DNA of 64,000 nt. It comes from Haplodiscus bocki. Taxonomy: Eukaryota. Positions 15,781 through 57,700 of this stretch are shown here, piece by piece. Numbering within the stretch: position 1 is the first letter of the stretch; each line of letters begins with the position of its first letter. Position numbers and translations under genes: made by a program. The stretch lies in assembly GCA_965655095.1 (NCBI GenBank), contig OZ296650.1, forward strand, positions 24,800,001 through 24,864,000, in the 5' to 3' direction. The notes beneath the pieces are model-generated. The model was given only the letters and a program-made list of their open reading frames with translations, was not told where the DNA came from and made no database searches.

Positions 15781-15980
15781 NNNNNNNNNNNNNNNNNNNN
15801 NNNNNNNNNNNNNNNNNNNNNNNNNNNNNNNNNNNNNNNNNNNNNNNNNNNNNNNNNNNNNNNNNNNNNNNNNNNNNNNNNNNNNNNNNNNNNNNNNNNN
15901 NNNNNNNNNNNNNNNNNNNNNNNNNNNNNNNNNNNNNNNNNNNNNNNNNNNNNNNNNNNNNNNNNNNNNNNNNNNNNNNN
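15781..15980. other. Assembly gap (200 N)
   Basis: Run of N characters. Confidence 1.
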
Positions 15981-17430
15981 TTCTAGTGACACTTCCATTT
16001 GGCGTTGCTGTAGGAACTCGCATAGCTGCTCCAGGTAAGCTGATATTTCTGTAGCTAATGAGTCCACATTGTTGCTCTCCGCGTAGACGGTAAAGTCGTC
16101 TGCGTAGGACACCAGTTTGATGTGGGCTGGAGGTAGAGGGGCGCCATTGACATAGAAGTTGAATAAAATGAGTCCTAATAGAGAGCCTTGCGGGACGCCA
16201 ACTCGGTCGTTACGGCTTTTGGAGAGGGAATCGCGAAACATAGTCCTCGCTTGTCTTCGGTGCAGGTAGCAGGCCAGCCAGCGGGTTACATATCCCGGTG
16301 GTGACGACCTGTTTATATCTGCGAGGAGGGTGTTGTGAGAGACTAGATCAAAGACTTCCGACAAATCCAGGGCTACGAGCAGCGTCCTTTCGGCTGGAGT
16401 CTCTTTGTTGAAGCCTTCGGTAATCGCAGCTGATATCTCGTTCAGAGCCGATGTCGTCGAGTGATTCCTTCTAAAGCCATGCTGTTGTTGTTTGCATTTC
16501 AGGTGTTTCTGGATGGTTGGTAATATGCACTTCTCGAGAATTTTGGAAGAAGGGCATAAAAGTGATAAAGGGCGACACAATTTACTGTCGTTTACTGGTT
16601 TACCAGGTTTGAGAAGAGGAATTATTGTCGATTGTTTCCATATAGAAGGTAAGGTACAAGTTGATATAGAAATGTTGAAAATTTTTCTCAGATAGCAGAG
16701 GGCTTCGGATCCCAGATGCTTCAGATGAATCATAGTGATCCCATCGGGCCCCGCCGCTTTCGAGCATTTGGCTGCTCGAATTGCTCCTTCGACCTCGGGA
16801 ACAGTGAAAAAAAGTGCCATTGTCTAGGACTCTTTTGCTTATCTCCCTCCGGATGGCTCGATGTTGTTCCGAGGTGCTGTGCGGCTTCGGCGAAGTGAAC
16901 TGCTTGATAAATAGTTCTGACATATAGTTGTGATCAGTGATAGTTTTCTTGCGTTTTGAGAATTGGAATTGGATTGGGTCTTTCCTTTTGAGTTTTGTTG
17001 CTTTGTTGTCGAGATTCTTTATGGTTCTCCATAGTTTCGACGAGTCAGTTTTGTGGTCGAAAGAGCTGATGAACTCGCGCCATTTTTTTTCTTTGCTTTT
17101 GCGTATCGACATCTGAATACGGCTATTTAGCTCCTTAATTTTTGGCGAGTGTGGTTCTTGGGCTCTTAGCTCGTCTCTTTCTGTCATCCATTCTTTGGGT
17201 TCATCTGAGAGCTGAGAAATCACGTCCTTGCGTCTGCCTGACGGAATGTGGTGTTTAGATGCTGTGTTTATGACTTTCCGCAGTACAGCTTCACCTTGGT
17301 ATACATCCGTTGGTCCAGACTAGTTTCTGAGCGCACTTTCTATCTCTTGCTGAAAAGCAGGCCAGTCAGATTTGGCGATGTTGATGAAAGTGCGCTTGGG
17401 GGCGCTGATGGGTTCCAGGAATGATGAGGA
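15981..17430 (-). mobile_element. 5'-truncated non-LTR retrotransposon (LINE) ORF2 reverse transcriptase, relatively young
   Basis: Long open frames 16600..17223 and 15981..16820 joined by a frameshift near an A-run (~16807-16813). Motifs KAAGPDGI, RPLSLLC, QHGFR, ALDLSEVFDLV, GVPQGSLLG, YADDF. No endonuclease catalytic motifs seen upstream; 3' end lost in the gap. Confidence 0.92.
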
Positions 17431-37253: not shown

Positions 37254-38306
37254 GTAATATTGGTTATTTAAATAATCGGTTTTTTTGTGGTCCAATTGTT
37301 TCATCTAGATTTTCGATTAGACGAAGTCTGAAGGTTTTTAGTTGACAAAATTTCACTCGTTAATTTTAGCAAGAATGTTGACTTCTAGGCAAGGCTAATA
37401 AATTGTACTTGAGTAATTTCAATTGCGATCATGATTGAAAAAAAAACGTTGCAATAAGTGTGTTTTATAGTTCATGAACAATAGATATGTTTTTATACGA
37501 AAACATTCCAATAATTATTGCTTGTCAAATTTTTAAATTACACACATGAAAATGTGAAAATGAACCGTTAATAACGCGATTTACTGTTTTTTGATCCCAA
37601 GTGTGATGATTGACTTTAGCTGTCAATCATGAGTGGCTCTTTAAAAGGCGCTTCTAAAGATCAATAGGTATAAAATAGCTTATGAAATCGGGGTTTGTCC
37701 CATACAAGAAGAGGAACATTGTTCAACTCCAGGCAACGAACTGCGTCCATCTCGTTTTCTCTCAGCTCCAATTCAAAATTTTCACTGCGTTTTCGAAATT
37801 TGGATACTTTACAATCCCGGCAGTTTTTGAAAAGTGACAACTGTCCTCGTTGAAGTCAGCAAGTCTCAATGTTCTGTCGGAGAACAACCTACAACGAAGT
37901 TTCCATCAAATTCACAAGTACCTGGCCAGCCACAGGGCACACCACGAACTTCCCGGAACAATGCGCCTTTCGGATTGCTCAGTCGAATCAACTCTTCAAT
38001 GAGTTCTTCCTGCATGTTTATTACTCATCTTTAAGCAAAACAGCCTTGAACCAGTCACTCTCTGGTGAAATTAACCCTTTCTGTTGCTGAGAAAGGCTTT
38101 GTGGGCGGAGCTACTGGACTGAAGCATGCAAAAACTACGGTACCTGACGGCCTATAGAAAGCTGTCCTAAAAAGCTAAAAAGTGCAGCAAAAGGTTGAGC
38201 AAAGTCACGTGTCTCAATTTTTGCGACCATCATAAACCACGGTATCTTCTCGAGAAAGTAATTTCCTTGTTGCCACCCAATCAGTTTACGACATTTCGAA
38301 ACCTAG

Positions 38307-39034
38307 TGTAACATTGCATGTTATGCTGTAAACTAAAGCAGAAAAGACTCATCTAAGGAATGTGCGCATCAAAACTTATCTCTAAAGGAAATATGAACAA
38401 AACTTGAACTTCGCACTTTCGGGAATCTAAACGGCGCTATATTTAAGATAAACTACTCCCATTTATCATTAGGTTAAACATTGATCTATTAAATAATGTA
38501 TACTCTTTAATTTTTGACAATTAGATTTGAACGCTCTAGAAGAAAGTTGGTTTACTTAACTAACAAAATTTCTGCTTTGACGAGCTGTTGAGTTGAAGCT
38601 TGTAGCAAGTCGAATCGCGGGAACCTCGTATCCATCAGAGACATACTGTACCTGAAAATTCAGAAGGTATCAAAACCCGCTCTGGTATAAAGGAAGCAAA
38701 ACTCGAAGTAAGAGCACATACATTAGATGGTGACAGTTCGGGTGCGACGACCAGCTACTTAGTAAAGACCAGCAGCTGCACAAGACGTCTGGATCCACTG
38801 GTTGGTCTAAACAGTATAAGAAGGTTAGTATGATCTTGTCATTCAAAAATAGCCTAAATCCTAGAGACTAAAGGCCTACGTATCAAAAGAGGAAGACGCT
38901 TAACCTTATTCCAGCAGACGACAGACACCTATCTGGAACTACACTAATCCTAGAATGCAGGGAGCCGTAGTCCTTCTTTCCTGTCAGTCCTATTCTTAAT
39001 CCCAACCTAGGAAGTTTAATTTAGATGCAGTAAA
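38307..39034 (+). repeat. 5' LTR, copy 3 (contiguous with the complete internal region)
   Basis: Copy of 23737-24464. Confidence 0.93.
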
Positions 39035-39262
39035 TTGGTAGTTGCGCTCCGATTGTTCTCAGAAAGATTGTTTTCATCATTCATCCTGAAACCACAGATT
39101 TTATAGGAAACGCTGGAGGACCTAATTTGGTAATAAGGCAGTAGTTGTGATTTTTCTTTTATTTTCACACATTACTTTCTGAAACGGAATCAGTTCATTA
39201 GGCTTTCATCGTTTTGACATTTCTTGCGATTCAGATCGACGGACACTTGTTTTGAAAAAAAA

Positions 39263-40496
39263 ATGGCAGCGCACGCACATTCAACGGTTTGGTTTCTCTT
39301 CCAAAAGACGGAGGAATTTCAATGGACAACTGGACCGACTTTGAGTCCTTGTTTCGAATGATAGTTGATGTTACAGGAATCCAAGCAAAATCAAAAAGTA
39401 GGATTCTTGAAGCTTCATTTGAAAGTTTCAGCATTACAATTTTTCCACACATTAGATGCGAACACAAGAGCAGACTTAGAGTTAACAATCGCAGCATTGA
39501 AAAACCATTTTTGCCCCCCGAATTTGTGGGAAATTCATTATATCAACTTCGAAAACACGAAATTTAACCACAAAACTGAGTCTCCTGGAGAATTTCTGGC
39601 AAAACTTCGAAATTTAGCGATGAAAGCTTATCCAACAGTAGTAGATCTGTCAGTAGCATCGGTTGATGTACTGTAGTAGGTGACCAAGACAGTTTTGATC
39701 GGTAAAGGAGAGAAAAGGATGATAGGAGAGATTTTGCTCAAATGGAACGAGAAACAAATAACTAGATTGATAAAAAAAGGGACGCCGATTTTTATACGAC
39801 TTAAACTTTTAGAGTTACGGGAAACTGCCACAATCCATTAATTGTGCTCAAAAGCCAGACAAAAACTGATTTTGAGAGAGTTATGCCCAGTAGATGATTG
39901 TTCTAGAGATGGATTGAAGGAAATGAGTACAGACAGTTCAGAAAATTTCCTAGCGGTCCGGACCAAAATGACAAAAACTGAAAATTTTCATGGAAATAGA
40001 ATTAACTCATTGAAAAAATTAGTCAGCCATAACAAGGCACATCGAGCCAAACACAATCCAAATTTTCAGCAACCAACAGAAATGGAGAGGAAATTCTAGA
40101 CGATGCTTTCAATCTTCAAATTCGTGAAAACAAGGGGATATTATAATAATAAAGGATCGAATAACTACCAGAACCAAAATCAAAATGAAGGAAGATACGG
40201 GAACAATTTCAGAGGGAACTTTAGAGAATAATTATAGAGGAAACAATTACAGGGGGAACAATCGTGGAAATAATTCAATGGCAACAGGAATAACAATTTT
40301 CAGCAATATGATAATCAAAACGCTGAAACGACTTTAAACACAGGAAATGTGGAAGGACACATTGCGACGGCAGCTTTTTCGGAGAGTTTGCTAATCACGT
40401 GGTTAGCGTAATCACATATCGAAAAATTGTGAAGCGAGAGGCAGAAGCAGCTCACGAGGTGGACAAATTCCGTTCAACTCGCAGTCAACAAACTAA
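39263..40496 (+). pseudogene. gag: gag (frameshifted)
   Basis: ATG at 39263, capsid-like helical segments (ORFs 39365..39676 and 39842..40099), an Asn/Gly/Arg-rich tract at ~40140-40320, a decayed CCHC knuckle (C*SRG*RNHISKNC), and a stop in CAACAAACTAA. Confidence 0.8.
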
Positions 40497-40499
40497 TAA

Positions 40500-43400
40500 C
40501 GCCACACACGTCAGACAGTCCAGAAGCCTCTAACATTTTAAGTTCACTGCCATACACTGAGAGTCATCATCTGAATGTTTTATCACCAAAAATAGATTAA
40601 ACCACAGTCAGCTTGAAGAAAACCCAATTTTTAATATAAACGAAGCTCCGGTTCCTGCAGATTTCGAATTGAACGCGGGCATTACCCTTGAAGGAGAAAA
40701 TTGAATTATTTACCTTTAATATTTGAGAATGATGTCATAAGCAAAGCAATAATCGAGACAGGAGCGTGTGCTAAAGCCATTGCGGTCGTTTTGTGTGAAA
40801 ACTGATAGAAACGTCACCGATTTCCCTCTCAGATTTGAAGCAAGCTTCTTTTTTAAGTGTCAAAGTGGCATGAGGACGCAATGTGAAAGTCCTTGGTCAC
40901 ATTGACGTTCAATTCAAAATTAATGAGAATGAATTTGAAGATACCTTCCTAATACTTCTTTCAGTGAACAGTGTTGTCTTAGGCAACCCATTCTTTTGTA
41001 AATACAGTTTTGAAATTGGCCCGGGAGAAAAAAAACTCAAACTGCCAGAATTGACTTACGAATTGAATGAAATAAAAGCTCTCAATGAAGGTCGCAAAAC
41101 GATTCCTAAACGACATTACCGACTTGTGATGAGCCAGAAAGTCATAATCAAACCCCAGCATCAGGAAAGTTTACAGACAAAAGTAGATTTTAGTAAAATC
41201 TTTGAATGACTTACTGGAATGATAATCCCAGATGATGATCTCGAAAATAGTACAGAATTTAGACTTCCATCCTTTGTTGTCACAGTTGGAAAAGACAACA
41301 TGGTTTTAATTTTTGCAATCAAATTGAATGATCACGCTATAAATTTCACAAAAAAACAAACTATTAGGCGTTTCCCAATTTCCCCTCTCCGCAAGGAGAA
41401 AATAATTGAAATCGGACCAGATTTTCTGGCACTCGAGAAAATGAAAGATGGAGAAGTTTTCCGAGAAATTTATGAACTTTTGCTGATGGGAAAAACAGGA
41501 GGAAGACAACCTAAACGCCCTCCCTTGAAAATGATAAATTTTGGTTTCCCCAACCAGAAAACTGTCAAAATCCTGATCACCTGCCTACCTGACAGTGGAA
41601 AATTTCTCATAACATAGTTGAATCGCAAAAACGTGATGTTTTAGATCCGCAAAAGAACGAACACGACAAAACATTTTCAGCACAATTTGATTGGTCGCAT
41701 TCAGCCTGGAACCAGGATCAAATTTCGGAAATGCAGAAGCATTCATTTGATTGTTACGACGTTTTTGCGAGACATAGATTCGATGTCGGATACAAAACTG
41801 AGCTGAAAGTTAAGCTGACATCAGCGCATGATTTACCAGTTGACGCACAAAGTCCACCCACTCCAATTCACTTGCGAGATGAAATCTTAGTTGAATTAGC
41901 TCTAATGCATTTTAATCGCATTATCACACTTTTATGACCCAACTCTAATTATAGCAGTCCAATATTTGCGCAACGCAAACCGGCAGGGAAACAGAATATT
42001 GATTGATTTGAGGCGTTTTAATCACGTCCTTCGAAGTGATTACAGCGATAAGAATTTGTCACTTTCAAACATGGCAGACGCCGTTCATCATTTTACAGGA
42101 AAGACTTTGTTTACCAAATGAGATTGTTCACAAGCTTATGATTGTGTACAAATGGCTGGCTGACCCGTTATCAGTCCAACTCTTATCATTCAACTTTGAT
42201 TCGAGAGCATACGCCTACACAAAATTAGCTCAAGGATTAAACAACTCAGTGACCAGATTTAACTCAATTTTCGTGTCTTATCTTGATTCGTGCCTCGGGG
42301 CTAACTTATGTAGACAATTCACGGACGATATCGGATGTGGAGTGGAGACATTTGAAGAAATGGGCCCCACAATCAGACAAATATTTGACTGTTTGCGTAA
42401 ATCAGGACTTAGATTGACCCCTCACAAGTGTGAATTTGGCATGACCTCGATAGATTTTCTGGGTAGCACAATCACATCTAATGGACTTACACCGGAAACT
42501 GCGAAATTAGAGAAACTTTTGAAGACAATGGAGTTACCGGCAACAGTTAGACAAGTGAAAAGGTTGGTTGGTTTTCTCTTATTTTTTTCGCACATTTTTG
42601 CCTAAGCTAGCTCGAAGTCTGATGCCTTGGTATAAGTTACTTCGGAATGATGCTGATTTTTCCTCGAGTGATGATCATTTGAGAATTAATGAAAGCATAA
42701 AAAAGATCTGCTCCAAGCTACCACAACCACTATCAGACTAGTGAAGCCTGGACAACAGTATGTAGTTCTATGTGACCCAAGTTATTACAGTTTATGGATT
42801 TGTTCTCATGATAGAGGTCTACATTGAACATAAAAACGGAACGGACAAACGATCTTACGCACCAGTGTCCTTTGTCTCTCAACTTTTTCATACGAGTCAG
42901 TTGAAGTTGTCTACGTATTGTAAGAATTTTTTAACACTTTATTTTGTGCTGGAAAATTTTTCTCCGTCGATTTGGGGTGCAGAAAAACCGGTCAATCGAT
43001 AACAAAAGTCACGAGTTTTTTCCACCCAAAATTACTCCACCCATCACTATGGGATTTTGTGGACAAAATGATCGCTTTTAACATAGTCTTGGTGCATATA
43101 CCAGGTCGAAGAAATGCAGCTGCAGATTTTCTGTCGAGAATGCGAACCGATCCAATTCAGAGCTTGGAACTACTCTTGATCGACTCAATTCCAATGAAAA
43201 AAATTGATATAGGTATGAAAGCCAGAACACCCGATGCATCTTTGCTGTTGATGGAATCGGACAGCACCTTAAATGAAACCAAACAACCACAAATACCGCA
43301 AGAGCTCATGGCCCAGTTACAAGCTGACGATGCCTTACAAAATTTAATTCCTAAATTAAACGATGTTCTTGAATCAGCTTCACCAAAAGAGACATTTTAA

Positions 43401-45671
43401 CTTTATGCTGTGAAAAAGGCTTTTGATATTAATTCAATTCAAGCAAATGACCCATTGAATTTTTTTGAAAAGTCAATTTCGAACAAACGAGTGATTGATA
43501 TTCAGACAGAGCAGAAAACGATCCAGCTTTGCGAAAAGTTATGGCCTGGATTCAAAAAGAATGCACAGATGATATTACATATGCTTCATTTTAAAAGAAA
43601 TTGTATCATAAGCACCTTTCGCGTTTGCAACTACGTAAAGGTTTTTTTAGCGCTTCAAGTTTTTGATGATGTTGGAAATGTCGAATTATCAAGTGTGCAT
43701 TCCGAAACATTTGCGACAAGACGTACTCTGGAATTAGCAACTCACCGACAGGTCCTCACCTCGGAATTGTCCGAACCGCTCAAGAGTTTCGTAAAAGATT
43801 CTACACTCCGGTGTTCACACAGTTACTCGCGGATTACATCAAAAACTGTGTCATTTTCGACACTGAAACGAGTTAACAAGAAGCAATTGAGCCCTCCCTT
43901 GAAGCCAACTCATCGGTACAACTTTTTCCGGGAGATATGATGCAAACTGACCTGGTTGGTCCTTTTCAATCGCTGATATACAAATATGCTCTGAGGCATT
44001 GATGCTTTTTCCAAATATCTGTTTGCAGTTCTGCTAACATCGGCACACGCCGGAAGTGTAGCAAAACCATTAGTTTCAATGTTTTTCCAACACAGCTAGA
44101 TTCCTACGACACTTCTGTCGGACTTGGGAACAAGCATCGTAACAAAATTACAACATGAACTGACTGATTTACTTGAAATTCAATTACAACACGCTTCTTT
44201 GAAGCATCCACAAACTATTGGAGTAGTTGTACGACCACTTTCGGCATTAAGACGCATTCTTAAACTGAATAATGCGGACGAAATTTGAATTAAATGGTAT
44301 CGGTACCTCGACCTAGCTACGTTTATACATATTACTTTTTACCATTCCTCAATTGGATATACTCATAGGTCTTTATTTCTTGGTAGAAAGTCGATAACTT
44401 CCATGGACATGAGATTCGGAAGCCACGTTCTGGCAAAGAAAGAGCTTACATAGATTATCTGGTGTATTTGCAATATTCACTTTTTGAACAATTTTCACAC
44501 GCGAAATCTGGATTGTTGGATGCCTGTTACAAATATCGTACCTACTATGATTCAAAAGCAGCACTGAAACCGTTGGCGAGCCACCAGTACTACTCATTGT
44601 TGAATCCTTCTCTGCTTACGCAGTGATTTTTGGTGCTGAATCCACAATGATTTGGCTTGCTCTGTATAAAGGTTCTGACAGTCCAACTACCGGATACGAA
44701 GACACGGTACTCCTTATACACAATGCGTTCATCGCACATTGCTGCGACCGATAACACCTATTTAAAATGTTGGTGACATCTCTGTGACCATGGATGATTT
44801 CCGACCCGATCCCTGTTTGGGAAAATATCGTTCCCCGCAGGAATTATTTGACTCTGCCCTGGACCAATCAACAAAAGCTCGACAAAAGCTGTCGCAATCT
44901 AAAGTTCCAGTGCCACAAAGTGACCGATTGCCCGCGAAATTTTGAAAGCATCACTGTCCAGAAAGATCCTATAGACGACCACCTGCTCCTTCTAATGATA
45001 CTTATTCAGCACTTTCTCAATTAAATACATGTGACAGGATTCAAAATGAAAGCATAGAGTTACCGCCTGACATTACTATTTCCGAAGGTGACATATGTTT
45101 TTAATCCACGTGCAAATATTGCTCAATGCGCTTCTTTTGACCTAGCAATGTCACCTCGGATTGCGACGCAGTTCCTTCGTTTTTTCCCAGATTTTTCTGA
45201 AGTACTGAAAACTCACCTTAACCTAAAACCAGGCTCACAGATAGCCTATTTCATGCATAAGATAGCAACTAGATTTATAATTTAATGACAAAACGATACT
45301 TTTTTGAAAAACCGATTTATTCTGACCTACATAAATGCTTTTGTCGCATAAAAAGTCACATGTTACAGAATAACATTAATGAAGTTCGCTTACCTCAATT
45401 TTGATGTGGACTTGACAAATTGCAGTGGAAAAAAATTTTGATGAGACTGGTAACATTTTCTGACATTACAAATATTCCCGTTGAAATCTTCCTATTGAGA
45501 GACTCAAATTCCAATGTTTCGGAAAATACGTTGATCGCAGAGGATTATTCCTCAGATGCGGAAACGCAACGACATGTTCGAGAAATCCTTAAAGCTCGGA
45601 ATTTAGCTCTGAAAGATATGCTCGAATGCCCTCTCACAAATGACCGCAACGACCGTGACACACGACCTTGA
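40500..45671 (+). pseudogene. pol: pol: protease, dUTPase-like, RT, RNase H, integrase, C-terminal macrodomain
   Basis: Protease IIETGA (~40750). RT: VFARHRFDVG, LAQGLNNS, FTDDIG, KCEFGMTSIDFLG. RNase H end HIPGRRNAAADFLSR. Integrase: GPHLGIVRT, MMQTDLVGPF, IDAFSKYLFAV, LSDLGTS, HPQTIGVV. Confidence 0.93.
45072..45491 (+). pseudogene. TARG1/OARD1 (Poa1p-like) macrodomain
   Basis: Across 2 frameshifts and 1 stop: ITISEGD/VFNPRANIAQCASFDLAMSPRIATQFLRFFP...LKPGSQIAYF.../IYNLMTKRYFFEKPIYSDLHKCFCRIKSHMLQNNINEVRLPQF*CGLDKLQWKKILMRLVTFSDITNIPVEIF. Collinear with OARD1 motifs GDLF, LAHCIS-D--MG-GIA--F, YYLITK, KPTY--L--SL, MPRIGCGLD-L-W. Confidence 0.88.
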
Positions 45672-45874
45672 GAACTGTCACAAACGATAACCTCTTTGCC
45701 TAATTAGTCTTATCAGAATTTTGGCGACGTTCAATCTGGCCGTTGTGATTAGAGTAATTTCTGCTAGTTGAAGTAGCATGTATCAATCCTTTCTGATCAG
45801 TAAACACTTCAACATTGAACTTTCGAAAATTCATACATCAATTGAAAGCAAATAAATTACACGGAACGACGAAA

Positions 45875-46616
45875 ATGAAAAATCTTTTTGGGGCTATCGT
45901 CACCGTACTTTAACGTGCGAGATATTCCGAATAATCACGATTAGAAGAAATGAACATAACGAACTTACTGCACCATGTCTTCGACCTTATACACACGGGT
46001 GGCACCACCGAATGCTGGTGTTTGATGAATTTATTGTCTTACCGCATACATTGGAACGGAGTGCATTGATTGACTCCGCCCGTCAATAAGCTGATACGGG
46101 AGAGCTGAAAGATTTTGCTGACTGGCTTGTCACAGTCGAGCACCCACAAAGGCGCACATTATTTTTCTTGGTCTTGTAACTTGACACCTGATATCGCCTA
46201 ATGATTTTGATCAATCATTTATCTTATCAGCCTCTATAAGACCACAGATTTTTCACTTCTGTCATCCGTCTTGAATCAGATGTTCAACGTATGCTAACAC
46301 CATGAGTCGTTTATTATAAAAAAATTCCACCACTGGATACACATGTGACATTCATGGTGTTCCTGTGATCTGGAGTGTGACCCATTCATACATCACTCTC
46401 CGAGTGGACTTCACAATCCTTTCTTGGAGTCAAGGAGCCCTCATGCACAAATACTTTACAATCAACCTGGAATCACCGGAATCGAGCACACTCGTGAGTG
46501 CCGCTGCTCCCTCTGCTCCTGACTTCAACTTGGCTAAAGACCTTATTGACTGGATGGCCAGACAATTTTGAAGCCATTTGTGAATTTTGGCCACTCAAGA
46601 TAATGATATCACGACT
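45875..46616 (+). pseudogene. Accessory ORF of unknown function between pol and env (3'-truncated)
   Basis: Starts MKNLFGLSSPYFNVRDIPNNHD and continues through coding-like frameshifted pieces (LTAPCLRPYTHGWHHRMLVFDEFIVLPHTLERSALIDSARQ...FNLAKDLIDWMARQF). Confidence 0.5.
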
Positions 46617-48099
46617 TTAATCACTCTTATAGCCTGAACTTTTTTTCCCTGAGTTTCCATACTTGAGGTATTTATGTATCGGTAACATGAAAACACAAAA
46701 ACAAAAAGAAACAAACAGTATTTTTAATTGAGTCACAATCTGTGAGTTTCCAAAATCGATGTTAGGAATTGTAGGTTGTTCATTCATTACGACAATTTTT
46801 CTCTTTGGCATCAGTTTTGCTTGATAGAAGACAATTAGTCTAATTTGCAGATAGACTTTATTGAGCTTTTGAGAACGATTGACCGCCGTCGTCATTGTCG
46901 CGTTCTTTCGAGCGTACAATAATATCTTCGTGACGTTTCAGTTTTTCACAATGTACCATTTAAATTGGTTGTATTTCCACGAATACTACATTTGCGACGT
47001 ATTAAGGAGAGTTCAACTAGTAGGCATTAGCAGTGAAGTCTGGTACACCCCTCCTGTGTGAACTTTCCACCGAGGGAACTACGGTCACTTGTTGTATTGG
47101 CATGACCCCATTTTCCTCAACACTCGGGCTTGGAACGAGTTGATCGCATGTCCCGCCCGTAACAACGAAACAGCCAGTCAAGATTTCCTCAACGACTGAT
47201 TGATTCACCTTGATGTCTTTGTCATACAATCAATGGCTTGGCACAATCAGCGTGACTGACGCTTCAAGCACAAACTCGTTCGACTCTCTTAGTTTCTAAA
47301 ACAACAGCCTTTTAATCTTGCCATTTTTTGAAATTGACTTTCATTTTGGTTGCATTTTGTACAGCACAGGTAACTCCAGCGAATTTTATCGGGTCTGATT
47401 AGAATTTGAAATATGAGGAGACCTCAAACACCAATTCAAAAAAAAACGGCTGCACCCTCCCTATATAGGAGGTCCGTTGCCTTCTCTTTTCCTGATCTTA
47501 GTTTTTTTGTTTTTGAACTCGAGTGAAAGCGAAGTTTCCGAGAAGCAATTTCATTCTGGGAAAATTTTGAAATTTTTTGAGACAAACAACTATATGGCCG
47601 AAATTGAAAAATCCCCTTCGACAAAAAATCGAGGATGTCCTCCCTTTTCTGGTAGTAGCTTTTTTCTCAGTTCTAGTTTTTATATTCGTGGAGGGGCCTA
47701 AATTGTTAGCCTATGAACTCGTTTCATTACACACACATGCGTACCATACAGAAACAAAAACTTTTTCTTTGCAAATGAAAAAAAACCCGCACGATGCGAC
47801 TGCAGACATGACTTTTCTCCTGCTAACTCTGCACAATTCAGTTGCTCTTCTTTTACCGCAAGTAAACGCTCCCACTTTGAAACTGTGGTCGTCTATCAGT
47901 CAAGTTTTAGTACTGCTGAACTTCGACTCCCGCAAGTTCAAAACTTAAACAAAAACACAGCGGACGATAGCATCGCTTTACAGTCTCAGATGGTGATTGG
48001 CTTGGGAGACTCACTTTACCAAGACTTGAAAACTCCCACTTCTGCCTTTTACAATTCAGTGTAACAACAAACGAATTTTTTTTCCTGGTCTTTTCCCCC

Positions 48100-49437
48100 A
48101 CTTTTTGGAGGAAATTCAAAAATCTGCTACCCACATTTTATGAAGAAGGGTCTTACCTGTTAAATGGAGCTTCTGCTTGGGGAGTACAGTCCCTGTGCTT
48201 CAAGCGGCAATACTTAGCAATCTGGTTCTCCTGACTGCTGGGATTCGACACGTGGGTGCATTGGCAATACTCACCCGGATGGTGCCTTATATGGCAATAC
48301 GGAGTATTCCGTGTCTTCTGTGCTGTCCCGTTTCTCAGTCAGGTACAATTAGCAACAGTGCACATAAACGTGATGTCTTCAACCGATGACAATTTGGTAG
48401 AAATCTTTGCTAAAGTGCTCTGCACCCTTTTTGATCTGCACCCTTCATCGAGGAAAGCCACTGGCTCAATCGGTTTTTATATATATAATATCAAAGACTT
48501 GGGAGTTGTAATAGAAAATTTCACGTTGTCTCCGAGTCGCTGTGGAGGTGGTTTTGTCAGTAGATTCATCAGTGCTTCAACAGAGGTTAAAAGAGGCTCC
48601 AGCTGCCTTGAGGTGTTTCCACATTTCGCAATTAATATTTTGCTACCATTGGGCACACAGTTATTGCTATCATCTCCGCGAGTTTCCATGTGGCCTGAGG
48701 TAAACCATGTTCCAATAGACAATATTCCGTCTAATTTAGTAATGGTGAGATTCTCAGGGCGCTGTATATCCACAAATGTCCCTAAATTGAACGAGACAGC
48801 GCTTGACTTCTTTTTAAAATGTTTGCCTTATGGGCTTAAAGGGCTATATACTAAATTATACTGAATTATATGGGCCGTATACTAAATTATATGGGCTTAA
48901 AGGGCCCATATATTTTCGTCTTAGGAACAGCGATTCCCTTCAATCCTTAAGCAACCATGCCAGTCTTGTATTTGGTGTTGTCAATCTTTCACACAACCTT
49001 TCATCAACTCTGAATAAGGATTGGTTCACGGTAACCATCGGTTCGGTTGCCCAATCTCCCGAAAACCCAGAAGCCAGTCCACTTCGTACCATTGCATTCT
49101 TCGCATCCTTCCATGTTTTACTGTAGGTTCCGTCAATTTCAGGCACGGGTCCACCCCATTTTTTTGAGCCTCTCCTCCGTTAACATTGCTTCCAGTTTCT
49201 GTTGGTTCAATTGTGTTTCGCTACGTGCTCTCCCTAAAAGACGAGAAATTCCATGTTACCATTATCCTAATTAGTGCCTCCGCGCCTTTTTCGATATGCT
49301 TCCTTTTTGCAGGCAATTACCCTTCAACGTTTTGCTTCTCAACCTTTTCGACAAACATCATTAACTGATAACAATAAAATTGTGCACTCACCAGATTCGT
49401 CTTCTAAATCGTCTGCTTTTGTTGTAACTAATTCCAT
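48100..49437 (-). mobile_element. Very degenerate piggyBac-like (PGBD) transposase remnant
   Basis: Acidic N-terminus MELVTTKADDLEDESG, then DGILSIGT, RGD...ILIAK, and ITTPKSLILYIKPIEPVAFLDE (cf. P--I--YN--MGGVD--D). No TIR or TTAA pair found. Confidence 0.4.
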
Positions 49438-50177
49438 CTGAAAATAAACTCGGTTATTCGTTCTGCACTTCATTTGGCTCAAAGGATACCATTTTGCCTG
49501 CAAACAATTTCACTATTCAAACGCTAAATTTCTTCTCGATTGCGATATACAATAATCATCAACAACAAAAGTAAAACTATAAAAACTATTTGAACTGTTC
49601 AAATTGTTTGTTTATGGCTATTACAATTGATTCTTTCTATCTAAAGTTGGCTAAGTAGACAAAACATGACAAAGACACAGTTGAATGCACAGTATAATCC
49701 AAGAGTTGTCTTCAGTTTCTCCGTCTTCCTTGAGTCCAATTGTGGAGCATATCTCCAAGACTTTTTGAATGCAACTGCGTCCAACACATGTCATTTTATC
49801 TCAACAGGTGACGGTTACATCGGCAACAACCTTTTCGAAACACATTTTCCAATCCAATCAGTGAGAAGCTCGTAGTATCTTTTACAGATGTTAAGGAAAC
49901 CACCAACAAAAAACGAAATAAATCAATGTATCTCTGAGACAAAGTGCTTCACCCAATAGTGGAGGAACATTCTGCCTAAAAGTTTTTTCCCTTTGCTGTT
50001 TTCCGGACTCCTCCTTTTTTTTACGCTACGGGAAGTTTTTTTTATTAGGACCCGTCCTACTGGCTGCACATGACGCCCCGGCTGAATGGAAATTTGACAT
50101 TGTTTCTGACCAAGATTCTGGCGCAGTACTCGCAAATAGCATCATTTTCAACCACGTTGCAAAAATTGTGTGACCTT

Positions 50178-52080
50178 GAAAGTTTATGAATGTTGATTTT
50201 CTGGTTCCGTTTTCGAAGTTCGACATGAACGTGAGTGCCGACCTAGGCGCTTACGTCGAGAAACTGGGAAAGCCTTGGAGCCACTCGAGTTGGCAGTGTA
50301 ATCTGGAGTACCCTTCTTTTTTTTCCAAAAGAATGATTCTTCTTTCGATATTGATTGGCTGTTACATCAAGCTCAAAACGAAGTTCGTCTTGCAGAGCAA
50401 GAGCTTGTCGCTCTCCACAACTACACTTCATCTTCCCTGAACACGGCACAAGGCGCCGCCTATGGACACAATAGGTCGCCGAGGGCAGCGCAACTTGCAG
50501 TGATGGCGCTTGCTTCCGCTGGATTATTTGGATCAGGAATTGCCCTTGGAGCTGGCGAACGCGGACTTAGGGAATTTTCGGATCTTGTCACGAACGGGCA
50601 AAACAACGCAGTTAATCTAGATCAATCAGCAGAGTTCAGGCAATTCCTACCAAAGCATGTTTTCAAATTACGAACCGACGTTAGCTATCATTTTCTCATT
50701 GTTACGACGGAACTTTGCACTTAAATCCGATTAAAAGGAAATGCTTGTAATCCAAAATAGTAACTGGAAAGTTATATGAGAACAATTTGAAATCTTAGAG
50801 CACAAGATTCATGTTTTACGGGATCTGACCACTTGTTATTCTCTCGACGGCAATTATATTTCAATTATGATACTTTTTTTTCACAGCTGGCAGTTACTTT
50901 TGCAAATATTAAAAGTTAAAGAAGCGCTCTTTACAGTCTTCGGATTAACATGATCAATTCAACACAGGCAATGCTCGATCATTATCTTTCTATATCGCTA
51001 GTTCCCAGACAATCACTCTCGAAAATTCTTGACATTGTCGCATTGGAACAATGGCGAGTATCGGACAGACGTACCTTAGCAATTCCTATTGATGAAATTT
51101 TAGCCTATGACGAATCGAAACCATTTCGTGATGTTTTAGTCATCGAGCAAGAATTTATCATGCGCATAGCAATTCCACTAGCAAGAAAGGAATCAACGTT
51201 TACAGTCTCTAGTGCTATAGCAGTCTCAATGCCTCAACCAGAAACCGATTTGGCAATTAATTGGAAATTAGAAGCGCGTTACTTAGCTATTTCAGAAAAG
51301 AACGATGACACAGCCTTCTTAACTGAATATGATCTCTCGCGATGTATTGGATCTACTCGCTATCAACTATGTCTAGACATGATTGCAATTGACGCAGGGC
51401 ACGGGTCCTGCCTAGCAACTCTGTATTGCAAAGATAGCGTTGAAGCTCTACAAACTTGCGAAACTGAACAAATAACACTACCTTCGACGGAAAAAGCAGA
51501 AAATTTAGGCTATGGAGCTTGGCTCATTATTTCGGCTACAACCGCTCATACTCTATACGAATCCGATACCGAATCTACTACGTTTTCTGGATTTACTAAA
51601 TATCTAGGATGCCGAATCTGTATAATCACCTTGAATTGCGCAAGGTAAATTCTCGCCGTCACATCAAGATCAGATCGGACCTCAGTACTTGCGAAGAACT
51701 TCCGGCTATCAAAGTGAATGTGAAATTTCCCGATCCTTTGAAATAAATATGAAGCGATTTACCAGCAATTGACGATATTCCCTATTACTCTCCGAAGATA
51801 CAGACAGGAGTTTCCTTACTAAAAGAAGTTCGCGAACGCTTTGTGGAAAGTCTGCAAATGCGCAACCCGAAAAAGAACTCTTAGATATCGCACGTCCGGT
51901 TACTTCTAAAACGACACAGCTGAGACCTTCACTCTCTAAAGATTTTGAATCCCATCTCTCCATCAAACACTCTCTGGTTATGGGTTTGATTTCCTTTACT
52001 GGTTCTATGCTACTTCATGTTTTGCTGTATCACCGCTATAAACATCACCACCCCACTACTCCACTTTGACGTGGCCTCTT
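50178..52080 (+). pseudogene. env: Envelope glycoprotein, F-type class I fusion protein (N-terminus missing)
   Basis: RSPR cleavage-like site (50473) followed in frame by the hydrophobic Gly/Ala peptide AAQLAVMALASAGLFGSGIALGAG. The 232-aa ORF 50950..51648 has Cys-rich spacing (RYLAIS...LSRC...YQLC...SCLATL...QTC). Transmembrane-like SLVMGLISFTGSMLLHVLLY (~51971-52030) with a basic tail. Confidence 0.85.
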
Positions 52081-52790
52081 CTGTTCTAAAGGCCTAAAGC
52101 AACGAGACGTAACAGCTGCTCCGAAGCAGCCCCTGCATATAGTGATGACTTAAGCCCAGTACAAGTATCTGCACCCGACTACTCGGCAAAAGTTCGAATA
52201 CTTAGTCGAGCTCAATCTGAGCAAAGTCTCTGCGCGCTATCCAACCCAAATCTAGCTACCTGTCAGGAAATCACTTCGACTGCGCCATCAGTTGACAATG
52301 TTCAAAATCTTAGAAATTTTTCATGAAATAACTCACCGCCTAGTGTGCAGCAGGCCCCTTGACCGAAAAATAAATGAGTTTCGTAAGCGCATGGGTCCTT
52401 TTTCGAACCGTTTAGAAAGGAACCAGTTCATTTTTTTGGCAAGCTGATTGAAATCAATATAATCGTTTTCAAACTTTCATACTGATCATATCCACTTTCG
52501 TTACTGTAGTTCTGAAAATTTTTAAAAATATATAAGCTTCATCAGACTGGACGGTTGTGTGCTGGCAATGCAACGGCAACTCTTCTGGATTCTGCATATT
52601 CATTGTGCATAGCGACATTTTTATGGGAACTGTTTTCAACTCTTCGAAGACTTTTTTAATCGAATTGCACCTTTTGGATTTTGGAATTTCAATTTATACT
52701 CAGCCATTCTGGAGATGCCTGTTCTGCTTCTGAGACCTTTGACCTTCCTTCGCCTTTTTCCACACGGTGATGAAACAGCGGCGAAGTGAC

Positions 52791-52804
52791 AGAAAAGAGG
52801 GTAG
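52791..52804 (+). promoter_or_regulatory. Polypurine tract
   Basis: AGAAAAGAGGGTAG abutting the 3' LTR. Confidence 0.8.
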
Positions 52805-53525
52805 TGTAACATTGCATGTTATAAAAACTACAGCAGAAAATACTCATCCAAGGAATGTGCGCATCAAAACTTATCTCTAAAGGAAATATGAACAAAACTT
52901 GAACTTCGCACTTTCGGGAATCTAAACGGCGCTATATTTAAGATAAACTACTCCCATTTATCATTAGGTTAAACATTGATCTATTAAATAATGTATACTC
53001 TTTAATTTTTGACAATTAGATTTGAACGCTCTAGAAGAAAGTTGGTTTACTTAACTAACAAAATTTCTGCTTTGACGAGCTGTTGAGTTGAAGATTGTAG
53101 CAAGTCGAATCGCGGGAACCTCGTATCCATCAGAGACATACTGTACCTGAAAATTCAGAAGATATTAAAACCCGCTCTGGTATGAAGGAAGCAAAACTCG
53201 AAGTAAGAGCACATACATTAGATGGTGACAGTTCGGGTGCGACGATCAGCTACTTAGTATAGGCCAGCAGCTGCACAAGACGTCTGGATCCACTGGTTGG
53301 TCTAAACAGTATGAGTAGGTTAGTATGATCTTGTCATTCAAAAATAACCTAACTAGAGACTAAAGGCCTACCTTTCAAAAAAGGAAGACGCTTAACCTTA
53401 TTCGAGCAGACGACAGACACCTATCTGGAACTACACTAATCCTAGAATGCAGTGAGCCGTAGTCCTTCTTTTCTGTCAGTCCTATTCTTGATCCTAACTT
53501 ATGAAGTTTAATTTAGATACATACA
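52805..53525 (+). repeat. 3' LTR
   Basis: TGTAAC...GATACATACA; direct repeat of the three 5' LTR copies. Confidence 0.95.
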
Positions 53526-54230
53526 CCAGCCTTTGATACATAAGTGTCTTAAATTTTTCATCGTTTCTTTTCAAAACAACGAAGAAGTGTTGAGACCACC
53601 CACCGTGGAGTTCCAATGAACCTTCTAAATCAAGTAGAGAAGGATGGAAGGAAACTGCAAAGAGCGGTTGTCTTACACAAACGTGTGAAGAAATGTAAGA
53701 AAAAATAAGCAGAGCCAAGTGAGAAAGAACTTTCTTTGTCAGAAGAAGCAAACAGAGAATCTTCATATACTTGAAAAGCCTTGCAGATAGCGCACGAACT
53801 GTCAATAGATCAAAAGTCACCAATTGCGAGGCGATATCTGACAAGTGAAAGGCCGAACTGATTAATAAGTTCTTCGTATCCGATTTTACTGATTGTTTTC
53901 TTTAAACCCCCACAAAGAGGTTTTTGGCGGAACAGAATATAACGGAGGCAGAAAGCTTATTTGAACTTGAAAGTCTGCATTCGAACGCAAGTAAGGAAGA
54001 TGATGCAATTCAGCCCATTCTGTTAAGGTTGTTATTTCACCATCATTGACGAACCTTTTGAACATTAGCCGACTGCAAATTTTTCCGTCAGAATGGAAAA
54101 TAAGCATCGTGTCACCCATCTTCAAATATGAGAACCGAAAAAAAGTCTCGCCATGAAGACCAGCTTGAATATCATCCCTAAACTTTCTGAAAAGGTTGTT
54201 TCGAGCCATTGCAGAAACCTCCATCGTAGT
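53526..54230 (-). mobile_element. DIRS/Ngaro-like reverse transcriptase fragment, upstream half (target of the LTR element)
   Basis: Pieces FVNDGEITTL...PPLYSV..., KIGYEEL (cf. KFKYEDL), VTFDL, ending TLMYQRL, which joins GFE on the far side of the insertion. Confidence 0.5.
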
Positions 54231-54249
54231 GATTGATAAATGCCATTAC

Positions 54250-54700
54250 GTGTTCTGTCCGCGACTAAATGTTATTGTTCAATTGTTTTTGCAGTTTGAC
54301 ACAAATTTATAATCTGATTGGAGCCGCAAAAACCTACGATCTTTCCGTTCTGTCTGATTTTTTTGAAGCTTTTCTCAAGATGAAGCGTAGTCAGCTCCTG
54401 GCGAAACTGCTGCAATTAGACATGTCAAAGGTGTTTTCGAACTTTTGCGTGATTACCTAAGTGGAAGATTTCAGAGTGTGAAAGTCCATGAAACGCACCG
54501 GGAGTATTTCACCATAATGTTTTTAGTCCGATAGGGATTTGTCATTAGACATTTATTGTGCATGATCTCTATCAATGATTTGCCTTTTGCTGTCTACTAC
54601 TCGATTGCTGTGCTTTCTGGAGACTACCCCGAAATTTTTTTTTCAAGGCAAAGAAACGGCCCTCAGTAATTTCCAGGATGACTGGAGCATCATGCATTGA
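54250..54700 (+). mobile_element. Degenerate LINE RT fragment
   Basis: DFFEAF...LLAKL, YLSGRFQSVKV and INDLP remnants. Confidence 0.6.
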
Positions 54701-57700
54701 ACTAAGAGAAGTGCTCACTCACAGAATGCAAAGTTCGGAACAGATATGGAAGGTCACTTGAAGCGACGCTCTATTTTGTCGTTAGATTTAAAAACTGAAG
54801 TATTTAAAAATTTCAAGCATATTTCTTTTCGATATAAATATTTACAAGATGCTCTCAGGCAATCATAGCGGTTTTTGCTAAAGAGGAAGATACTCTAGCG
54901 TTTAAAGACTAACTTGGAATAAGGGTCGAGAACTAACAACTGTCAAGCTTCATTGATTTTTCAAAAATCAGTTCTGTTAGATAAGGTTAAAAAAACTGTA
55001 TGCTACGACTGGGGTGATTATGTTCGGACGTAGTCATTGTAGTTTTCGTGTTTGTTCACCCATTCTGCGACTGAATAGAAGAATGTGCATTGGAAACCGG
55101 CTTATAATAATTTTCTTTGTCTTGTCCAAAACTTGCGTTCTGTGACGTTATCAAAGAGTCTAACGATGTAGTGAAAATTATCAAAAACGACTTCTTTTTG
55201 CAGTTGTTTATTTTCGCGTTGCAAAATATGCTAAGTTCATATACATAATGTCCGAAAAAAATGACTATATAGTTTCCTAAAAAGTTATGTTTCGTATATC
55301 AATGTCTTCAATGGCTTGATTTTGAAATACGGGTAATGGTTTACTAAGTGACCGAAAAAACGATCCTTTTTCGAAATTTAAGTTCTCAGAAATGCAAGTC
55401 TTATTAAACAAATCGTTAGTATGCTTTTGAAATTTCTTGCCCGCTTGTCAATTATCTGCAATATTGACACTCATTTTGTCATGTACTGAAACCTTGCCTT
55501 AGTTGAGGACAGATGAACTTGAAACTTAGACTCAGAATTCCTTGACATTTTAATAAACTTTAAACCATTTTAACATTTTAAACTTAATTAACATCTTAAT
55601 TATTTATACACAATGTTTATTTTAATATTGATGAGAGCTGATCTCAAAATCAACAGCTCAGAAGAGTAATAATTGAAATAATGAAAAGGTTCTCTCAACT
55701 AATCCAAAAGGATTGTGATCCATGCATCCAAGATTCTTGTCCGCTCGCCAATAAACTGCTGTCTCCAATAGTGTAAAACATAAACTAACACCTGAAGAAG
55801 AGGTTTAAAACTTGGTGACAGTTCGGAGACAATCCTGAAAATGCAATACAGAGAACTACCCTTTTTGGGCTGAAAAGCCCGCTTGTGCTCCGTACCAACC
55901 ACCCGCTGCGATTCCTTCACGTCATCCACCAAACCCAGCCACATCATCCATGTCCAGACCAAGTTCCCAGTTGAAGTCCAGTTCCACATCCACAAGACTG
56001 CAAAACTAAAACAAGAGAAGGATCAGCAGTATCATTGAACTTTGCCAAATACTTCCAAATTATCTGCTGTGTGTTTTGGACAAAAAGTCTCTAAATCATT
56101 GGACGCTTCATTTCAATGTTTGGACTGTAAACTTTTCTGGAGGAAATTTTGAATTGACTGTGGAACAGCAACTTTGAGTCGCAAACAGTCGCAATTCAAC
56201 ATTGCTATTCCGAATTTTTTTCATTGATGTTCAATTGAGGTTCAGTTTGGACAAGACGACGACAAGACATTGGGATCTCAATTTTCATTCAGATGTTTGA
56301 CGTGATGCTTCAATTCAATCACGAACAGTCAGTGGTGCTGGTGAGTTAAAAGCCAGTATTGATGTAGTAAATTATATGATGTTTTAATCGTTTCAATTCG
56401 ATTCAATTGCTTTCATTTAGCTTGCAACGCCCTTTGCTTTCAACTTTTCGCTTTCAAACTTGTTTTTCTTTCAATCACTTTAACTTTAACATTGTTTCAA
56501 GTAATTTTCTTGATCTGAAAGTTTTGGAACTTTCCTTTTATAGAAATTGAGTTGTAAACAACTCTGAAGTTTTGAAATAGTTTTCTAGCATAGGTGACAC
56601 TGTTTTTTTCCCGTTCTCTACTATTAAAAGCTTAAACATTGGGCTACCAAATGGCAAAACCCAAAAAGTTTTGATTGTCAGCTTGATTTTTGAGTATGAG
56701 GCACTGTAAGAGGTATTCGTATCAATTCGACTGTACCGAACAAGCGTTAGATTCACAGCTGGTCTGGTAATCTCCGGTGTAGTAATTCTAATAGTGTATC
56801 ACATCCCCGATTATATTCTCAAATGTCTCTCAGCACCTTTGATATGTGATACGTGTTTTTGATGTCTACTGACGAGTCAGACTGTGTTGCAAAGTTATGC
56901 TTTGCCTTTGTGCTTCTGTTTTGATTTCATAATTTCAATATTTTCCGTGGAAATATTTTCGAAAAGAAAGTTCAATTCAGTAGGCCAGTTTTTTCGTACT
57001 CCTTAAACTGCCCATGACGCGCTGACTTCGCGTTGCGGAATCATTGATGGCTTGTATAACAAATTTGCCACTGCGATTTGGTAACCCACAGGTAGCAGGT
57101 TCGACAGGATTCGTTTTTTTGATGAATTGGTTGTTTTCTCAAACTCTTTCTTCCCCAGGTAGCTCAGATAATTTGTTTTTGCTCGAGTTTTTCCAAAATC
57201 TACTCTTTTTTCAAGGAAGACGAAGAAAATTTTATTATGACTAAAAAAATTGTAACAATATTTTTTAAAAACTTTTGTGTTCTTTTTGCTTACCGTTTTT
57301 TGTCGTTTTCATTATTTTTTCGGAACCAAAACTTAAAAAAATTACTGACATTTCTGCTTATTAGGATTCATGTTTCTTCATAGCAATGGTCTTCACCTCT
57401 TCAATCAATGTTTAAATCGGAGTAATGCTGGTGGAGGATTGTTCCGTTAAAAAAGTTCCGTTTTAGTCCTTGCATCCGAATCCTGGAAGTCAGAAAATGC
57501 CAAAATTTACTTTTTGAGCTATCTCGATACTCAAATTCATGTTACTGCATAATTGCTGGTTGACTCCTTCCTTGAAAGTCTCATTCAATGGCTTTGTACG
57601 CGCGAGGAACTATGTAGTTATAAGATCACCAATTTTTGTCTTTCCATTGGAATCTTGATAGGCCGAAAATTGCAAAAGGATGCTTTTTTGTTGACATATC

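Follow-up and report, generated by a model that had tools for sequence, protein, structure and literature searches.

A TARG1-type macrodomain behind the integrase of a dead env-carrying Ty3/gypsy element in Haplodiscus bocki, with intact relatives that carry it within Pol

Introduction

Macrodomains have been captured by retroelements before. Macrodomain open reading frames (ORFs) in epsilon-like endogenous retroviruses of teleost fish are already in print (PMC4977317, citing Basta et al. 2009); these elements belong to the Retroviridae, and their macrodomains are described there as additional ORFs and not as integrase fusions. Here we describe a macrodomain of the TARG1/OARD1 type located after the integrase of a dead, env-carrying Ty3/gypsy element in a 64,000-nucleotide stretch of the Haplodiscus bocki genome (GenBank assembly GCA_965655095.1, contig OZ296650.1, positions 24,800,001 to 24,864,000 of the forward strand; hereafter the window, in whose coordinates all positions are given). 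Env-carrying Ty3/gypsy elements, called errantiviruses on operational grounds in PMC13524379 and including Tor3b and Tor4b of Oikopleura (PMC4402516), share with it the order of long terminal repeat (LTR), gag, pol and env and an F-type env, a type of env that is widespread in Ty3/gypsy elements (PMC13524379, PMC4402516). Tor4b also resembles it in having a gap between pol and env (PMC4402516). Unlike the element in the window, errantiviruses and Tor elements are reported to carry a chromodomain as the integrase-tail domain. The capture of extra enzymes by such elements is also known (PMC5408684). The comparisons with fish retroviruses and with errantiviruses and Tor elements were made by description.

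The word "macro" is absent from the main texts of PMC13524379, PMC4402516 and PMC5408684, the supplements of which could list such elements, and a macrodomain-integrase fusion was not found in the available portion of a survey of fusions between chromatin domains and transposons (10.1101/2021.11.30.470311). A TARG1-type domain on a Ty3/gypsy integrase was not found in the literature searched, a weak negative in that most subscription journals and Repbase lie outside its coverage. In public databases, proteins derived from transposons do bear automatic "OARD1-like" labels. That retroviruses have captured macrodomains is already known, and what is apparently undescribed is the fusion of a TARG1-type domain to a Ty3/gypsy integrase.

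The Macrodomain in the Window

The domain runs on the plus strand from 45072, where the motif ITISEGDI starts, to 45497, where IPVEIFLL ends. An earlier note on this DNA, made from the sequence alone, had described a complete macrodomain of ~140 codons; the span does come to ~142 codons, but there is no ORF, and the domain lies in three frame pieces separated by frameshifts near 45097 and at 45255-45272, with a stop codon at 45402-45404. Compared with the PDB, the C-terminal half (45276-45500, with the stop read as X) matched human TARG1/C6orf130 chains only (five sequences, E 5.5e-12 to 7e-12), as expected from the TARG1/OARD1 assignment made in the note, and the N-terminal half alone gave no match (best E 0.55). 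In the alignment to human TARG1, LMTK corresponds to LITK and CGLD to CGLD. The Lys and Asp that the note had read as the retained catalytic residues are encoded at 45291-45293 and 45414-45416 and lie 41 residues apart, the same distance as between Lys84 and Asp125, the catalytic pair of TARG1 (PMC8120803). Residue 125 is written as Glu125 in PMC7050489; the PDB chain has Asp.

A TARG1-like profile, built from 34 stand-alone TARG1-like proteins, matched 45189-45491 (E 1.1e-22) and 45109-45249 (E 5.7e-4) in the six frames of the window, the sole further match being noise (E 0.26). By tblastn, 127 of 149 database relatives match the window at 45050-45520. Pfam found no Macro domain in the three window pieces, and a first homologue search with the C-terminal half returned one match among 84 candidates.

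The Macrodomain as Part of Pol

The nearest relative, P0001 (P numbers designate database proteins), contains linker and macrodomain in one ORF. At a threshold of E 0.001, P0001 had 1299 matches, and the analysis used the best 150; P0058 and P0070, possibly human, were left out of all counts (n = 151 proteins). In P0002, the integrase tail of which is 67% identical to that of the window, and in P0033, integrase tail, linker and macrodomain are found in one ORF. When P0033 was used to search longer proteins, 14 were found in 8000 candidates scored, including P0165, which is not a retroelement. Eight of the 13 retroelement proteins (P0152-P0159) are single-ORF Pols with reverse transcriptase (RT) and/or RNase H, integrase and a complete terminal macrodomain. 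They represent clusters of 1-121 members, 333 in all, whose members need not all reach the domain. P0161 has a partial macrodomain, and the P0160 protein stops before it. Because intact relatives carry integrase, linker and macrodomain as one ORF, the macrodomain is a native part of the element lineage. The earlier note had suspected as much, and the single ORF of integrase and macrodomain that it proposed to look for in family copies is present in the intact relatives P0152-P0159.

In P0164, which represents another element type, gag and protease are followed by a macrodomain (Asp_protease_2 E 1e-10; TARG1-like profile E 8.8e-46). Its macrodomain is likely an independent capture, since it groups with cellular-type domains. 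P0037 may resemble P0164, having a gag-like start by eye, for which Pfam gave no confirmation. Among the best 150 of the 1299 P0001 matches, TARG1-like domains were also seen fused to BRCT/ligase 3 parts, NADAR, SLOG, WWE, PWI and TBP.

The precomputed Pfam lists for the eight long Pols include no Macro domain, and a rescan of three of them gave one sub-threshold match; the macrodomain is therefore easily overlooked. Pfam scans of P0155, P0157 and P0158 found no chromodomain at the integrase C-terminus, the slot that the macrodomain occupies, and chromovirus identity was rejected on this ground. A macrodomain between protease and RT in P0030 and P0100 was also considered but not supported: of eight flank alignments, seven scored no higher than shuffled sequence, the eighth (4/200) was misplaced, and BLAST found nothing.

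Conservation and Origin

The equivalent of Lys84 is present in 8/8 long Pols, as is that of Asp125. In a wider set of 33 element-clade rows, which were assigned by eye and from the tree and some of which are without known context, Lys is found in 25/25 and Asp in 18/20 rows where the column is covered. The motifs of the ADP-ribose pocket give a mixed picture, with Ser in 29/31, His in 26/31 and the Gly123 equivalent in 19/20, but the adenine-pocket Asp in 14/28 only. None of the three points that the earlier note had named as able to overturn its reading did so: the domain occurs in other elements, it matches macrodomains, and its catalytic residues are conserved in intact copies.

In the eight long Pols, 22 of 121 shared columns are invariant, Lys and Asp included. 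Fifteen of the 22 coincide with the 30/121 columns conserved in cellular-type homologues (p 1.8e-6, an optimistic value in that related sequences are not independent). Mean identity among the eight Pols is 81% for RT (minimum 74%; 15 pairs from the six Pols covering RT), 83% for RNase H, 74% for integrase, 47% for the macrodomain and 33% for the linker; the corresponding values for distant Pol pairs are 78%, 77%, 68%, 38% and 23%. Macrodomain identity lies above that of the linker and below that of RT, and the domain is therefore conserved yet fast-evolving. At the protein level, this pattern indicates purifying selection on the ligand-binding loops and the Lys/Asp pair.

Phylogenetically, a tree of 45 rows contains a branch (98/97) that sets 21 rows apart. 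These comprise six rows without known context, the subfamily to which the window copy belongs and the remaining integrase-tail domains. The other side of this tree consists of 22 randomly drawn cellular-type rows plus P0164 and P0037; P0165 and P0108 were left out. When 17 element rows were constrained to form one group, the constraint was not rejected by an approximately unbiased (AU) test (p 0.32), a result that is no proof of a clade. In the Pol tree, P0157-P0159 and P0161 are split from P0152-P0156 and P0160, and the same two groups are seen in the macrodomain tree. The domain-free P0162 and P0163 form their own long branch (100/100) in the Pol tree, which is unrooted, such that gain and loss are indistinguishable; the RT and integrase pieces from the window are on long branches with no supported position. 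The simplest reading, supported but not settled, is one gain in the lineage followed by vertical inheritance with Pol. This Pol architecture, seen in the window in a dead copy, is real, shared across the lineage and apparently undescribed.

Structure Match and Class

In a fold search with a model of P0020 (predicted local distance difference test score, pLDDT, >90 over the domain), TARG1 occupied ranks 1-8 (E 1.4e-10, root-mean-square deviation (rmsd) 1.4 Å), followed by DarG (E 5.6e-8), Poa1p at rank 14 (E 1e-5) and alphavirus domains from rank 19; RNA-virus macrodomains gave E ~5e-5 at 13-17% identity. Human TARG1 (OARD1, C6orf130; PDB 4j5r, 4j5s) is the best match in both sequence and fold, with 35-40% identity and an rmsd of 1.4-2.2 Å to the model of a relative, and the equivalents of Lys84 and Asp125 are kept in the element domain. 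TARG1 is a stand-alone cellular enzyme, whereas the element domain is terminal in Pol, fast-evolving and placed in its own element-rich group.

Bacterial DarG, the second-best fold match, shares the Lys. The PADLOC DarG profile matched all six queries (E 2e-14 to 3e-5) over profile positions 2-146 of 329 only, and both this profile and phrog_335 match the macrodomain part only. The element domain differs from DarG in that only the first ~145 of the 329 profile positions are matched and its neighbors are integrase and env, with no toxin partner seen. DarG is described as being without the acidic partner residue (PMC7050489), which the element domains keep. DarG antitoxin identity was therefore rejected, the C-terminal part of the profile being unmatched and no darT lying beside the domain. 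The macrodomains of RNA viruses (alphavirus nsP3, coronavirus Mac1) are alike in being located within a viral polyprotein and provide a model for a counter-PARP role; they differ in giving a far weaker fold match and in belonging to a different class with a different mechanism (in part after PMC7050489).

Structure of the Element

The features of the element are as follows.

38304-53523, plus strand: dead LTR element as a whole; LTR pair and internal coding remnants
38304..39032, plus strand: 5' LTR; termini TAGTGTA...GCAGTA, inverted and decayed; the right end is our reading
39036..39053, plus strand: TGG stretch resembling a primer-binding site, 3 nt past the LTR; from sequence only
39272..40500, plus strand: putative gag-like region, broken, with an Asn/Gly-rich end; from position and translation only
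40695..41750, plus strand: protease and dUTPase-like spacer, broken; by tblastn with P0155, P0157 and P0158
41755..42702, plus strand: reverse transcriptase, broken (one stop, three frameshifts); RVT_1 E 6.3e-12, 62% identity to P0155
42705..43235, plus strand: RNase H, broken (three frameshifts); 59% identity to P0155
43665..44870, plus strand: integrase, broken, with H2C2, core and a C-terminal HRIRLRP-type module; Integrase_H2C2 E 2.4e-5, rve E 5.2e-4
44871..45071, plus strand: Pro-rich linker remnant, ~189 codons fewer than in the closest relative P0002, with the gap at 44871
45072..45497, plus strand: TARG1/OARD1-type macrodomain, pseudogenised (two frameshifts, one stop)
45498..45671, plus strand: 57-codon tail in frame up to a stop; from translation
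45672..50053, no strand: pol-env spacer of 4.4 kb; no gene identified
50054..52126, plus strand: F-type env, broken (seven stops, seven frameshifts); 69% identity to intact P0166
52791..52801, plus strand: polypurine tract, directly before the 3' LTR
52802..53523, plus strand: 3' LTR, with CACC directly after; the choice of end is ours

The two repeats (38304-39029 and 52802-53521) are 95.6-95.7% identical. They are flanked by a probable 4-bp target duplication, AACC before the 5' LTR and CACC after the 3' LTR, which has one mismatch and depends on the LTR ends chosen. No tRNA gene was found in the window, and the TGG stretch was not matched to a primer tRNA. The gag-like region is interrupted by stops and had no meaningful Pfam match in three frames. 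For the protease and spacer region, Pfam gave weak Asp-protease matches in P0155, P0157 and P0158 and a dUTPase match in P0155. The order protease, RT, RNase H, integrase, together with two LTRs, a primer-binding site, a polypurine tract and a short target duplication, is that of a Ty3/gypsy element; the copy in the window does not have three intact ORFs, the measured pol and env parts being broken and gag containing stops. The best PDB match of the relative P0158 is Ty3-G Gag-Pol (E 6.9e-46), with 159 bits for Ty3 and at most 84 for entries other than 4ol8, which we take to be the Ty3 RT. The macrodomain is the end of the protein in most complete relatives, unlike the window copy with its 57-codon tail.

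The frequency of breaks per 100 codons is 1.3 in RT, 1.7 in RNase H, 3.0 in integrase, ~2.1 in the macrodomain (three in ~142 codons) and 2.1 in env. These densities are similar, as the earlier note had sensed for macrodomain and pol, and the macrodomain has therefore decayed together with the element. The LTRs differ by 4.3% only, yet the coding parts hold 1.3-3.5 breaks per 100 codons, mostly frameshifts. This load seems to exceed the age implied by the LTRs, perhaps as a result of an already defective parent being copied in trans or of over-calling against distant relatives.

The RT active site, for which the usual motif is YxDD, reads QFMDD in P0152, P0153, P0155 and P0157-P0159, QFTDD in the window and QYVDD in P0162. 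At 19784-41639 of the window, a unit of 7.285 kb is repeated in tandem, with three copies that are 99.85-99.89% identical. Each unit contains the 5' LTR, gag, protease and the spacer before RT as well as ~3.95 kb of flanking sequence, and the junction has a few bases of microhomology (TGT); pol past 41639, the macrodomain and env are all single-copy in the window. The tandem is either a recent amplification or an assembly artefact. A second RT is found at 15625-17319 on the minus strand (RVT_1 E 1.2e-22; of long interspersed nuclear element (LINE) type by eye), across a gap of 200 N at 15781-15980, and decayed LINE-like RT fragments, seen by eye and negative in Pfam, lie on the plus strand at ~53900-55100, right of the 3' LTR.

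Env and the Spacer Between Pol and Env

The presence of env, already proposed in the earlier note, is confirmed by 32 relatives, found in 1003 candidates, and by 69% identity to the intact P0166. The window env has a furin-type site (RSPR), a fusion peptide and a C-terminal hydrophobic helix that would serve as anchor, and an RxxR site precedes a hydrophobic peptide in 26/32 env relatives by a pattern of our own. Three weak lines of evidence point to a glycoprotein F type: all 13 matches of a profile search of the PDB were to F0 (weak, E 0.03-0.7), the Atlas placed env at 0.95-0.96 to Baculo_F/Fusion_gly clusters with low recognition, and Foldseek matched the F protein of respiratory syncytial virus (RSV F; E 2e-6, template-modelling (TM) score <0.3, model pLDDT 63). 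The window env fragment alone had no match in Pfam, PDB or Atlas, and Pfam also misses the intact env relatives. P0161, the Pol with a partial macrodomain, and P0192, an env relative, list the same source-sequence size (254090), the only such match among 14 x 32 pairs, which weakly supports linkage of pol, macrodomain and env outside the window.

The longest open frame in the spacer (48235-48864, plus strand, 209 amino acids) has no family match, and the opposite strand is nearly open there; a repeat of 21-31 nt lies at 48829-48905. The spacer (45672-50053) gave no Pfam or PHROGs match in the frames scanned (for 46600-50000 of the plus strand, the two longest ORFs only), no terminal repeats hinting at a nested insertion and no Rfam match, and its stop density is mostly near random. 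The extra ORF of the earlier note could consequently not be verified, and its picture of a complex retrovirus-like element with accessory genes was overstated. Complex retrovirus identity was rejected, as Pol is of the Ty3/gypsy type and nearest Ty3 by the bit scores given above, the macrodomain is part of Pol, and no accessory ORF was verified.

Proposed Function and Alternatives

By analogy with TARG1 chemistry, the macrodomain is probably an active ADP-ribosyl hydrolase borne by the integrase, erasing ADP-ribose from the nucleic acid, the proteins or the integration intermediate of the element. TARG1 removes ADP-ribose from Glu/Asp, from nucleic-acid ends and from O-acyl esters (PMC7050489). 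Through Lys84, it also reverses the ADP-ribosylation of thymidine and relieves the toxicity of DarT (PMC8501950). PARP1 ADP-ribosylates telomeric single-stranded DNA, a mark that TARG1 removes (PMC11102865), and an involvement of ADP-ribosylation in silencing is known from SIRT6, which modifies KAP1 to repress L1 (PMC4695847). The Pol of this env-carrying Ty3/gypsy lineage ends in integrase, a long disordered linker and the TARG1-type macrodomain. As a part of Pol, the macrodomain would, following standard Pol biology, be packaged in the particle and travel with integrase and complementary DNA (cDNA). There it could remove ADP-ribose put by host transferases on element nucleic acid or proteins or, alternatively, clear ADP-ribose from the ends and gaps of DNA where integration takes place. 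Within the hydrolase reading, it appears about equally probable that the domain counters a modification of the restriction type and that it clears PARP marks of the repair type.

Several observations weigh against this reading. Animal hosts encode their own TARG1, and why an element would need a private copy is unexplained. The evolutionary rate of the macrodomain far exceeds that of RT or integrase, no more than 14/28 rows have Asp at the adenine-pocket position, and P0155 deviates at several further motif positions. By eye, the first half of the window domain also has two changes at sites that are nearly invariant in the rest of the family. P0162 and P0163 are without the macrodomain, which is thus dispensable at that distance. 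Matches of the P0001 search were picked by macrodomain likeness, which biases them toward conserved motifs. Finally, a quick tree of 145 rows (the domains, out of 164, with a coverage of 100 columns or more) did not unite the subfamily of the window with the remaining element domains and left it, unresolved, beside the long-branch bacterial-type P0165.

As the main alternative, the macrodomain could act as a reader, tethering the integration complex to ADP-ribosylated chromatin at sites of damage or replication much as chromodomains do in chromoviruses. Attachment to the end of integrase by a long flexible linker would suit this role, chromodomains are found in the same slot of other Ty3/gypsy and env-carrying elements (PMC13524379), and the ALC1-like class includes both readers and erasers (PMC7050489). 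We nevertheless consider a tether less likely than a hydrolase, in that the Lys/Asp pair is kept in 8/8 long Pols while the adenine-pocket Asp varies, and the unrelated P0164 carries its TARG1-like domain after protease, away from any integrase. A role as a housekeeping enzyme that aids reverse transcription by acting on small molecules or RNA ends (O-acetyl-ADP-ribose, ADP-ribose-1''-phosphate, capped RNA, tRNA ends) seems less probable still. Diffusible substrates need no fusion to integrase, and the fold match to Poa1p, although present at rank 14, is far weaker than that to TARG1 (E 1e-5 vs 1e-10). In fish retroviruses, macrodomains and cyclic phosphodiesterases have been linked to by-products of tRNA splicing. 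Consistent with such a role, these viruses carry genes of either kind (PMC4977317), and the substrates of TARG1 include O-acyl-ADP-ribose and ADP-ribosylated nucleic-acid ends (PMC7050489).

The least probable account, which the relatives largely refute, is that of a neutral passenger, that is, captured host sequence in decay or a one-off insertion in the window copy. It would fit the broken state of the window copy, the truncation of P0160 and P0161 before or within the domain, and the absence of the domain from P0162 and P0163. Against it, the domain is in frame in eight Pols of several subfamilies, and its conservation is concentrated on functional columns while the adjoining linker is randomised.

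Implications

Going beyond the hydrolase reading itself, it is conceivable, if rather unlikely, that a host ADP-ribosyltransferase directed at DNA or RNA poisons retroelement cDNA and that an integrase-tethered TARG1 counters it, a conflict that would parallel DarT/DarG in a eukaryote. If so, the repeated capture of macrodomains, in this clade, in P0164-type gag-protease fusions and in fish retroviruses, would reveal that defence against transposons has a general and so far unrecognised branch based on ADP-ribosylation. It would also point to where the base-linked ADP-ribose erased by TARG1 originates in nature. As of 2021, thymidine ADP-ribosylation had no known transferase in humans (PMC8501950), and an element that keeps a TARG1-like eraser may therefore hint at where such marks arise. 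More generally, a conserved ADP-ribose domain of the enzyme type, found in the integrase-tail slot of multiple subfamilies and in large clusters, suggests a significance of ADP-ribosylation for the life cycle of retrotransposons.

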